In this document: piece by piece, positions 17,400 through 18,628 of the stretch
Numbering within the stretch: position 1 is the stretch's first letter
Layout of the letters: every line of letters begins with the position of its first letter
NCBI GenBank assembly: GCA_041479715.1
Contig: JBGOYO010000001.1
Coordinates: forward strand, 1 to 29,298
Length of the DNA: 29,298 nt
Reading direction: 5' to 3'
Source: Anaerolineae bacterium
Lineage (GTDB): Bacteria; Chloroflexota; Anaerolineae; Anaerolineales; UBA4823
Position numbers and translations under genes: made by a program
The notes under the pieces: generated by a model
Told to the model about the DNA's origin: nothing
What the model saw: only the letters and a program-made list of their open reading frames with translations
Databases searched by the model: none

Positions 17400-18620
17400 A
17401 TGTCAAAGTTTGCTCGACGAATGACTACTATGGAAAATTCAGCAATTGTTATAAAAAAATTGTTTTCAGCCTTAGTTGACCCAGGTACCATCTCATTTGG
17501 AGGTGGTGCTCCTGCAAATGAAGCCCTACCGGTTGACATTGTCCGTGAAATTACCAACGAGATCATGAGAACTGATAAGAGAGGAATAGAAGCATTGCAA
17601 TATGACGGTATCATGGGAGTTCCAGACCTTCGTGAAGTAGTACTTAAAGAGTTACTGGCACCTAAGGGTGTGAAAGGAAAAGTTGATAATGTAATGATTA
17701 TCAACGGAGGTCTTGAAGCCATGAATCTGCTGTGCCAGGTGTTTATTAATCCCGGTGATATTATTCTCGTAGAATCTCCAACATTTGTCCATTCAGTTGA
17801 AATTTTTGATATGTTCGAGGCTAAATGTATCGCTGTAGAAACAGATGACAGCGGGATGGTGCCCGAGGACCTGGAAGCCAAAATTAAACAATTCAAACCT
17901 AAAATGGTTTATATTATTCCAACATTTCAGAATCCGACGGGGAGGACTTTGCCACAGGATAGAAGACAGCGAATCGCCGAGCTTGGAAGTAAATACGATA
18001 TCATCATTTTGGAGGATGATCCTTACCGCGATATCCGCTATAGCGGAACAGACCTGCTTCCTATCAAAGCGTTTGATAGGACTGGGCATACAATTTTGGC
18101 AAACAGTTTTTCAAAAATATTTTCCCCAGGTACAAGGCTAGGTTATTTATTGGCCAATGATGAAGTAACTGAAAAGCTGATTTATGCTAAATCAGCGACT
18201 AATTCACATACCTCGACGTTCTCTCAAGTAATCTGTGCTGAATTCTTTAAAAGGGGTTATTATCCGGCTCATCTCAAAATGATTTGCGACCTTTATCGTG
18301 AAAGAAGAGATACCATGATCGAGTGTATCGATAAGTTTTTCCCTAAAGGGACCAAAAGGACATTCCCAGATGGTGGTCTGTTCACATGGGTAGAGCTTCC
18401 GGGTAACATCAACACTACTGAACTTTTAACCGAATCTACCTCAAACCCGGATGTAAAAGTTGCTTTTATTGCTGGTGAAGGGTTCTTCACCGAAGGGGGT
18501 GGAAAGGGTAGTAATTGTATGAGAGTCAGCTTTGGTCCCGTTCCTCCCGAGAAAATCCGAATTGGTGCAGAAAGATTAGGCAATCTGATTTGTTCTAAAT
18601 TGAAACTGTCAGGTGACTAG
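17400..18620 (+). CDS. Fold-type I PLP-dependent aminotransferase (LysN/AroAT/KAT-II-like, no HTH)
   Basis: ISFGGGAP, VESPTF, IPTFQNPTG, ILEDDPY, PLP-lysine SFSKIFSPGTRLGY and GGLFTWV. The final codons KLSGD* coincide with the IS end. Confidence 0.9.
   Translation: MSKFARRMTTMENSAIVIKKLFSALVDPGTISFGGGAPANEALPVDIVREITNEIMRTDKRGIEALQYDGIMGVPDLREVVLKELLAPKGVKGKVDNVMIINGGLEAMNLLCQVFINPGDIILVESPTFVHSVEIFDMFEAKCIAVETDDSGMVPEDLEAKIKQFKPKMVYIIPTFQNPTGRTLPQDRRQRIAELGSKYDIIILEDDPYRDIRYSGTDLLPIKAFDRTGHTILANSFSKIFSPGTRLGYLLANDEVTEKLIYAKSATNSHTSTFSQVICAEFFKRGYYPAHLKMICDLYRERRDTMIECIDKFFPKGTKRTFPDGGLFTWVELPGNINTTELLTESTSNPDVKVAFIAGEGFFTEGGGKGSNCMRVSFGPVPPEKIRIGAERLGNLICSKLKLSGD
18603..18620. repeat. Orphan distal IS end (identical copy of 10185-10202)
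   Basis: AAACTGTCAGGTGACTAG. Similarity extends to 28/29 nt over 18593-18621 versus 10175-10203. No second transposase adjacent. Confidence 0.8.
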
Positions 18621-18628
18621 ATATTTAT
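18621..18628. repeat. Right copy of 8-bp direct repeat ATATTTAT (putative target-site duplication)
   Basis: Immediately follows the distal IS end and is identical to 9010-9017. Confidence 0.75.

Follow-up and report, generated by a model that had tools for sequence, protein, structure and literature searches.

The window analysed here, an entire contig of 29.3 kb (29,298 nucleotides), belongs to a MAG of 3.03 Mb that is divided into 466 contigs and is 77% complete. Within it, a response-regulator gene and a DUF4870 gene are separated by 9.6 kb of DNA that opens with a complete insertion sequence (IS), continues through a passenger block of 8.4 kb with eight genes and closes within the last codons of an aminotransferase gene, where a second copy of the right inverted repeat (IRR) of the IS is embedded in the reading frame (Table 1). 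Here we describe the two ends of this unit, the sequences that were joined at its distal border and the routes by which that border could have formed.

Table 1. Features of the 9.6-kb unit and its borders, with positions in the window. L160 and L163 are JGI metagenome contigs and G018 is the closest relative; IRL denotes the left repeat of the IS.
Feature	Position	Strand	Description
Left target-site duplication, 8 bp, ATATTTAT	9010-9017		Abuts IRL; identical to 18621-18628
Complete IS4-family IS, 1,185 bp	9018-10202	-	IRL 9018-9035 (15/18 to consensus), IRR 10185-10202
Transposase gene	9040-10116	-	Likely start ATG at 10116 behind GGAGGA; longest ORF to 10170
Right end of the resident IS	10175-10202	+	Subterminal TTCTAAATTA and 18-bp IRR AAACTGTCAGGTGACTAG
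Cargo, first part	10203-17240	+	panB, five Liv-type ABC transporter genes, PF04199 cyclase/formamidase-like gene
Aminotransferase module	17241-18605	+	98% identical to L160 and L163; homology ends exactly at 18605
Aminotransferase CDS	17400-18620	+	406 aa, 2-aminoadipate-transaminase-like, fold-type I (PF00155); last four codons and stop in the IS end
Junction microhomology TTCTAAATTGAAA	18593-18605	+	Native sequence of the gene tail (C-SKLK) as well as of the subterminal IS region
Solo IRR copy (18 bp)	18603-18620	+	Distal end of the 9,603-bp unit
Right target-site duplication, 8 bp, ATATTTAT	18621-18628		Directly after the solo repeat; G018 has one copy-equivalent in an uninterrupted site

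The resident element belongs to the IS4 family

The transposase is encoded by one minus-strand ORF of 376 amino acids that is read without a frameshift, as in single-ORF IS4 elements with a DDE enzyme. It matches PF01609 (DDE_Tnp_1) at an E value of 4.4e-7 with 30.3 bits, above the cut-off of 23, and the model NF033591 ('IS4 family transposase') at an E value of 3.3e-42, where its 144.8 bits fall slightly below the curated 152. The Y-(2)-R-(3)-E-(6)-K signature that defines the IS4 family proper (PMC2266710) is complete in the transposase, as YRRRMWIEEMFGDMK at ORF residues 279-293. The element further carries terminal repeats of 18 bp and is associated with duplications of 8 bp, a length within the range of approximately 8-13 bp given for IS4; IS701, ISH3 and IS1634 make shorter ones, of 4-6 bp. 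By its 5'-CT ends and its size of 1.19 kb, it falls between the IS10 and IS50 subgroups as tabulated in PMC2266710.

The left repeat of the resident copy (CTAGCCATCTGAAAGTTT) differs from the consensus at three of its 18 positions, compared with one position in a full copy of the IS, 87% identical, from a MAG of the same genus (L115). Given these three mismatches, the resident element may now be less mobile. Its IRR is followed by AAATATAT and not by the 8-bp sequence that brackets the unit as a whole.

The IS and its passengers form one inserted unit

From the first base of IRL to the last base of the solo repeat, the unit (9018-18620) measures 9,603 bp, and an exact 8-bp duplication, ATATTTAT, lies on both sides of it. 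A match at all eight bases would arise at random with a probability of about 6e-5 in the AT-rich context of this region. The IRL at 9018-9035 and the IRR copy at 18603-18620 are inverted with respect to each other, with the transposase and the eight passenger genes between them. In four genomes of the same genus (G018, G008, G010 and G011), the response-regulator and DUF4870 genes are adjacent, approximately 100-130 bp apart, and represent the empty site. This site reads CTGTAATTC-TTTTTAT-AAAGTAAG in G018, and the window with 9018-18628 taken out reads CTGTAATTC-ATATTTAT-AAAACAGG. Together, the flanking duplication and the adjacency of the flanks in relatives show that 9018-18620 was inserted as one piece between the two genes.

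A sequence-only reading of this DNA had proposed that a second full IS copy behind the aminotransferase gene once closed a composite transposon and was then deleted down to its terminal repeat. The duplication and the empty site show that the repeat does close a transposon, but the full second IS copy did not turn up in our searches. The unit resembles a composite transposon in being surrounded by a duplication and in having an empty site in relatives; two complete IS copies are not present, and on the far side similarity to the IS is confined to 28 nt. A single pair of inverted ends that moved a transposase and passengers together is instead the arrangement of a single-transposase cargo element, or transporter IS (tIS). 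The unit is distinct from MICs and MITEs, which have no transposase between their ends, by virtue of the intact ORF at 9040-10116.

No second inserted copy of the unit was found among the metagenome loci, in two MAGs of the same genus that contain the IS subtype or in 400 genomes of the order. Among the fetched loci, other candidates for large cargo units with this repeat (L100, L134 and L147, 3.1-5.5 kb) lack a duplication and probably represent chance or nested ends.

The distal repeat is fused to the aminotransferase gene

The sequence at 18593-18621 reads TTCTAAATT-G-AAACTGTCAGGTGACTAG-A, and that at 10175-10203, the right end of the resident IS, reads TTCTAAATT-A-AAACTGTCAGGTGACTAG-A. The two agree at 28 of 29 nt, with G18602 against A10184 as the sole mismatch, and the pair is also listed by a repeat search. 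The 18-mer AAACTGTCAGGTGACTAG occurs exactly twice in the window, in direct orientation, and an inverted copy with three mismatches is present at 9018-9035. Both the in-frame fusion of an IS end to the gene and its single mismatch, as described in the sequence-only reading, are thus confirmed, and the repeat at 18603-18620 is a genuine duplicate of the IRR with which the resident IS4-family element ends. The ORF at 17400-18620 ends in TCT AAA TTG AAA CTG TCA GGT GAC TAG, which encodes SKLKLSGD and a stop; without the TAG of the repeat, the next stop would be a TGA seven codons downstream.

Homologues of the aminotransferase reveal what stands at this position when no IS is involved. The family consensus C terminus is ...LICSKLK followed by a stop, in a protein of 402 aa, and remote homologues end in SKLK with codons such as TCT AAA TTA AAA TAG or TCA AAA TTG AAA TAG. 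The metagenome contigs L160 and L163 diverge from the window exactly after TTGAAA, where L160 continues with ATT AAC ACC TAG (INT and a stop, for a KINT tail). The identity of L160 and L163 with the window through TTGAAA, taken together with the tails of the homologues, shows that TTCTAAATTGAAA (SKLK) is native gene sequence and that the native end of the clade is K-I-N-T-stop. On this alignment, the unambiguously IS-derived bases are 18606-18620 only (CTG TCA GGT GAC TAG, for LSGD and the stop), and the AAA codon (K) is common to the native gene tail and the IS. The gene does take terminal codons and its stop from the IS, as had been claimed, but these are four codons (LSGD) in place of INT and its stop rather than five (KLSGD).

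The comparison of homologue C termini that the same reading had suggested did not give the outcome that would have refuted it: IS-free homologues end in SKLK, SKLKINT, SKLKN and similar tails, and never in KLSGD. A native origin, in which KLSGD and the stop are simply the gene's own end and resemble the IS by chance, is in our judgement next to impossible. It would be right in treating TTCTAAATTGAAA as native to the gene, but none of 60 inspected homologues and none of the six other alleles of the cluster ends in LSGD (the one exception is a copy of this same allele with a shorter N terminus), the 8-bp duplication begins directly after the 18-mer, and shuffled sequences yield an expectation of just 0.03 matches to the 18-mer per window.

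Nor do we find it at all probable that the transposase bypassed its own IRR and used a chance IR-like host sequence at the gene end, in the manner of ISEcp1 and TMo modules. The layout is the same, with one IS, adjacent DNA, a distal end in IRR orientation and a duplication around the whole. Against this, the distal end matches the IR at 18 of 18 positions and the IS end of locus L140 at 31 of 31; it is not the imperfect, pre-existing repeat of an ISEcp1-type surrogate, and the native sequence at this position (ATTAACACCTAGGTG in L160) is not IR-like. The reading is contradicted in that it would need native, IS-free alleles with CTGTCAGGTGACTAG. As a separate matter, insertion of a MITE at the gene end was ruled out by the collinearity with L160 up to 18605 and by the absence of a left repeat inside the gene.

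The tails of close alleles vary. In the 90%-identity cluster, which has eight members, we find KINT in three, LSGD in two and NIYT, KIY and L in one each. One of the two LSGD records is the protein of the window itself, and the other (P0123) is shorter at the N terminus; P0122 carries the KINT tail and P0001 the NIYT tail. The NIYT of P0001 bears a likeness to the duplication sequence, despite which it would be best explained as two substitutions from KINT and not as a junction that lacks the inverted repeat. The sequence-only reading had also suggested that selection on the enzyme could preserve the mobile end. This finds no support in the alleles of at least 90% identity, among which no part of the protein varies more than its tail (KINT, NIYT, KIY, L and LSGD); if there is any constraint, it would act from the transposon end onto the codons.

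Both junction partners carried the same tract

The sequence shared by gene and IS extends further than the 9-mer that had been noticed first. Two independent IS copies, at loci L089 and L140, have TTCTAAATTA and TTCTAAATTG, respectively, beside the repeat and within IS ends that are 94-96% identical. L089 reads ...GATCAATCCTTTCTAAATTA-IRR, the variant with A, and L140 reads ...TTTCTAAATTG-IRR, the variant with G; the latter is the solo end over 31 of 31 nt. Both loci are in the same MAG of the genus (G009, identical with G041), which has no cargo. The 13-mer TTCTAAATTGAAA is therefore native to the IS subtype as well as to the gene, and in view of the 31-nt identity between L140 and the solo end, the G18602/A10184 mismatch is ordinary variation among IS copies or simply the G of the gene. 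The two sequences that were joined thus possessed one and the same 13-nt tract (9+3 nt if the partner IS had A), with the breakpoint inside it. The proposed microhomology is in this respect stronger than had been suggested, reaching 13 nt if the partner IS had G, as in L140.

A chimeric join made through the repeat during metagenome assembly is a further explanation of the junction that we consider very improbable. The source MAG is fragmented, and IS copies often break or confuse assemblies. The exact shared stretch beside the mismatch, however, is just 19-20 nt long, which is below the usual assembly k-mers; the downstream flank follows the intergenic sequence of relatives in register, the duplication has the correct length, and records of the LSGD protein exist for further contigs.

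Short ends are common in this IS family

The exact 18-mer was found in 107 stretches of species-representative genomes, nearly all of them Anaerolineae/Chloroflexota MAGs, and the interiors that accompany it belong to several IS subtypes and to MITEs. In the fetched loci, complete copies of 1.19-1.21 kb have perfect 8-bp duplications at 9 of 15 end pairs and agree at seven of eight bases at two more, and the terminal repeats match at 18 of 18 positions in L070, L096 and L125. Duplications of 8 bp are likewise seen at MITEs of 174-309 bp that share the repeat. Because MITEs with this repeat are abundant, short ends appear to be enough for transposition in this IS family, and from the same MITEs we infer that the 29 nt of end sequence at the distal border of the unit could plausibly suffice.

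Several further elements of this kind were observed. Loci L054-L139 include a large population of MITEs of 131-375 bp with an identical 18-bp repeat, several of which have perfect 8-bp duplications. MAG JACIWR01, with more than 20 contigs, is an example, and one Anaerolineae MAG contains dozens of copies of a single MITE family. Locus L106 holds an element of 746 bp that has lost internal sequence and is flanked by an 8-bp duplication.

Formation of the junction

A transposase cuts at the outer tip of its element and would be unable to join the interior of an IS to a gene, so the observed junction would require illegitimate recombination at the shared tract. Replication slippage, a template switch or microhomology-mediated end joining at TTCTAAATTGAAA may have joined the repeat to the gene, in an event that would have swapped the native last codons (INT and the stop) for LSGD and the TAG of the IS end.

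We slightly prefer a course of events that the sequence-only reading had already outlined, in which a second, directly oriented IS copy once sat behind the gene. The junction between them would have read the native tail (ATTAACACCTAG...) and then IRL, CTAGCC..., and a deletion would have run from the gene tail to 11 nt inside the right repeat of this second copy. The same deletion would have taken away the long direct repeat through which homologous recombination could lose the cargo. We favour this course because compound structures are the usual origin of such units, because multiple copies of the subtype exist in the genus and because the deletion removes the destabilizing direct repeat. 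The junction does lie at the 9-mer microhomology at which the sequence-only reading had placed the recombination, and a former second IS copy is plausible; on the other hand, 40 metagenome loci, 400 genomes of the order and the 77%-complete assembly yielded no allele in which the gene is followed by a complete second IS. Within the assembly, the repeat (with up to two mismatches) has no copies beyond the two on the window contig. The spacer at 10203-10647, after the resident IRR, shares nothing beyond chance 8-10-mers with the sequence downstream of the gene in L160 or with the aminotransferase-panB spacer of L161. We would give the whole account, in which an IR copy bounds a single-transposase cargo transposon and was fused to the gene through TTCTAAATTGAAA upon deletion of a second copy, an even chance of being correct.

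The length of the tract bears on this preference. Shuffles of the IS against the 8.4 kb of cargo gave 39 shared 9-mers, 0.62 12-mers and 0.16 13-mers, with a 13-mer present in 11%. If the second copy and the gene were separated by no more than a few hundred bases, a 9-nt match would be expected, whereas a 13-nt match would have a chance of approximately 0.16 x 300/8400, or about 0.006. A match of 13 nt is accordingly unlikely a priori under a deletion of the second copy if that copy was near the gene.

An alternative that dispenses with the second copy is possible, though we hold it to be somewhat the less probable of the two. Here, TTCTAAATTGAAA at the end of the gene would have recombined with its counterpart in the one IS, which lies 8.4 kb upstream, by unequal sister-strand exchange or through a template switch. 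The product would be a tandem duplication in which the gene tail is joined to the final 15 nt of the IRR, and the transposase, acting on IRL and the distal IRR so created, would then have moved the IS and cargo together to their present site. The intermediate would read gene tail, IRR and then AAATATATTCTCAT.... Such an exchange predicts the present sequence exactly, as does deletion of a second copy. It accounts for a border that lies in a coding tail and not in a spacer, it agrees with an assembly that has one IS copy and one solo end only, and it is unremarkable for the IS to have 12-13 nt in common with some part of 8.4 kb of neighbouring DNA, a second real 12-mer being present at 9797 and 12774. 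It nevertheless requires a microhomology event across 8.4 kb and subsequent use of the distal end over the proximal one, the A of the resident IS as opposed to the G of the junction means that a mismatch was tolerated or arose later, and the intermediate has never been seen.

We can only tentatively entertain the idea that a single IS could create a cargo transposon without a second insertion, through a chance 12-13-nt tract kilobases away: a single exchange there would place a copy of its terminal repeat, and the transposase would handle the DNA between as belonging to the element. If this is true and general, the extent of the cargo would be set by chance microhomologies to the subterminal region of the IS, and borders in gene tails would be its signature. 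Under the favoured deletion of a second copy, transposition may have preceded or followed the fusion.

Origin of the cargo

The cargo is missing from 40 relatives apart from weak matches to ABC paralogues, and a search of 400 genomes of the order at E<=1e-50 did not find the aminotransferase module. The similarity of L160 and L163 to the window is limited to 17241-18605, and their flanks have no counterpart in the MAG of the window; by these flanks, they come from a different organism. The presence of a 98%-identical module with the same limits in another organism means that the aminotransferase gene has recently moved between hosts, and more than once.

In L160 and L163, the module, again limited at 17241 and 18605, sits between a decayed IS481-like transposase gene and an operon for a ferredoxin/2-oxoacid:ferredoxin oxidoreductase. 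The cargo of the window is a mosaic, in which the module has a GC content of approximately 40% and the remainder 45-52%. At three remote homologue loci with 67-82% identity (L161, 5936-8188; L162, 7491-9743; L173, 2-2050), panB follows the aminotransferase gene by about 50-300 bp; in the window, panB is the first gene of the cargo and the aminotransferase the last. This order is as expected from a circle or dimer donor with the arrangement aminotransferase-IS-panB, which we take as suggestive only.

Two MAGs of the same genus have copies of the IS subtype at 84-87% identity, and the cargo was found in neither of them. The closest relative, G018 (identical with G042), has an uninterrupted target site yet contains several copies of the IS subtype (84% identity). 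Given these copies in a genome with an uninterrupted site, the IS is at home in the genus and the cargo is foreign.

Relation to known mobile elements

The locus is a well-documented case of a cargo transposon of the IS4 family that has a single transposase and whose distal end became joined to the tail of a gene by way of microhomology. It has much in common with the IS4 compound transposons Tn5 (IS50) and Tn10 (IS10) and with Tn9 (IS1), which is flanked by direct repeats: in all of them, the cargo lies between IS ends, the outer ends are used, and the unit is bracketed by a duplication whose length is typical of the family. With Tn5 and Tn10, it further shares a DDE transposase of the IS4 family that bears the YREK motif. 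Unlike these three transposons, however, it has one complete IS, and the other side consists of the 18-bp repeat and at most 11-13 nt more; the ends are arranged as directly oriented copies, and the distal one lies inside a coding sequence.

Transporter IS and other unit-like elements (PMC9330008) are similar in that one transposase and its passengers occupy one pair of inverted repeats and the cargo is lost only by events other than transposition. In contrast to these elements, the history of the present unit is legible: the internal IRR at 10185-10202 is complete, so the IS can also move alone, and the passenger block comprises 8.4 kb and eight genes. The MIC231 cassettes of IS231, also of the IS4 family (PMC2266710), and MITEs likewise show that short IS4-family ends can enclose foreign DNA and be mobilized, but they are without a transposase, whereas that of the window unit is intact. 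Transposition units of ISEcp1 and TMo modules resemble it in moving one IS together with adjacent DNA and in the duplication around the whole, and differ in using imperfect chance surrogate ends where this unit has a perfect, IS-derived repeat.

The mechanism itself is not new, as C-terminal extensions derived from IS, solo ends and microhomology deletions are already known. What the locus offers is an unusually legible record of an IS and neighbouring genes becoming a stable single-transposase cargo transposon, with both parents of the junction recoverable, as are the duplication and the empty site. It illustrates how a transposon end can determine the final codons of a metabolic gene, and it documents recent horizontal movement of a gene set for amino-acid uptake and transamination into an Anaerolineae genome.

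Two minor features of the unit may be recorded. At 10210-10229, after the resident IRR and eight flanking bases, the sequence TTCTCATAAATTGAATATAT looks like the gene tail TTCTAAATTGAA into which 3 nt have been inserted; the likeness may have arisen by chance, the DNA being AT-rich, or may be what is left of an older junction. The exact 12-mer CCGATCTTGGTG is present in direct orientation at 9797-9808, in the transposase gene, and at 12774-12785, in the second ABC ATPase gene, and the pair is a potential site of a further microhomology deletion.
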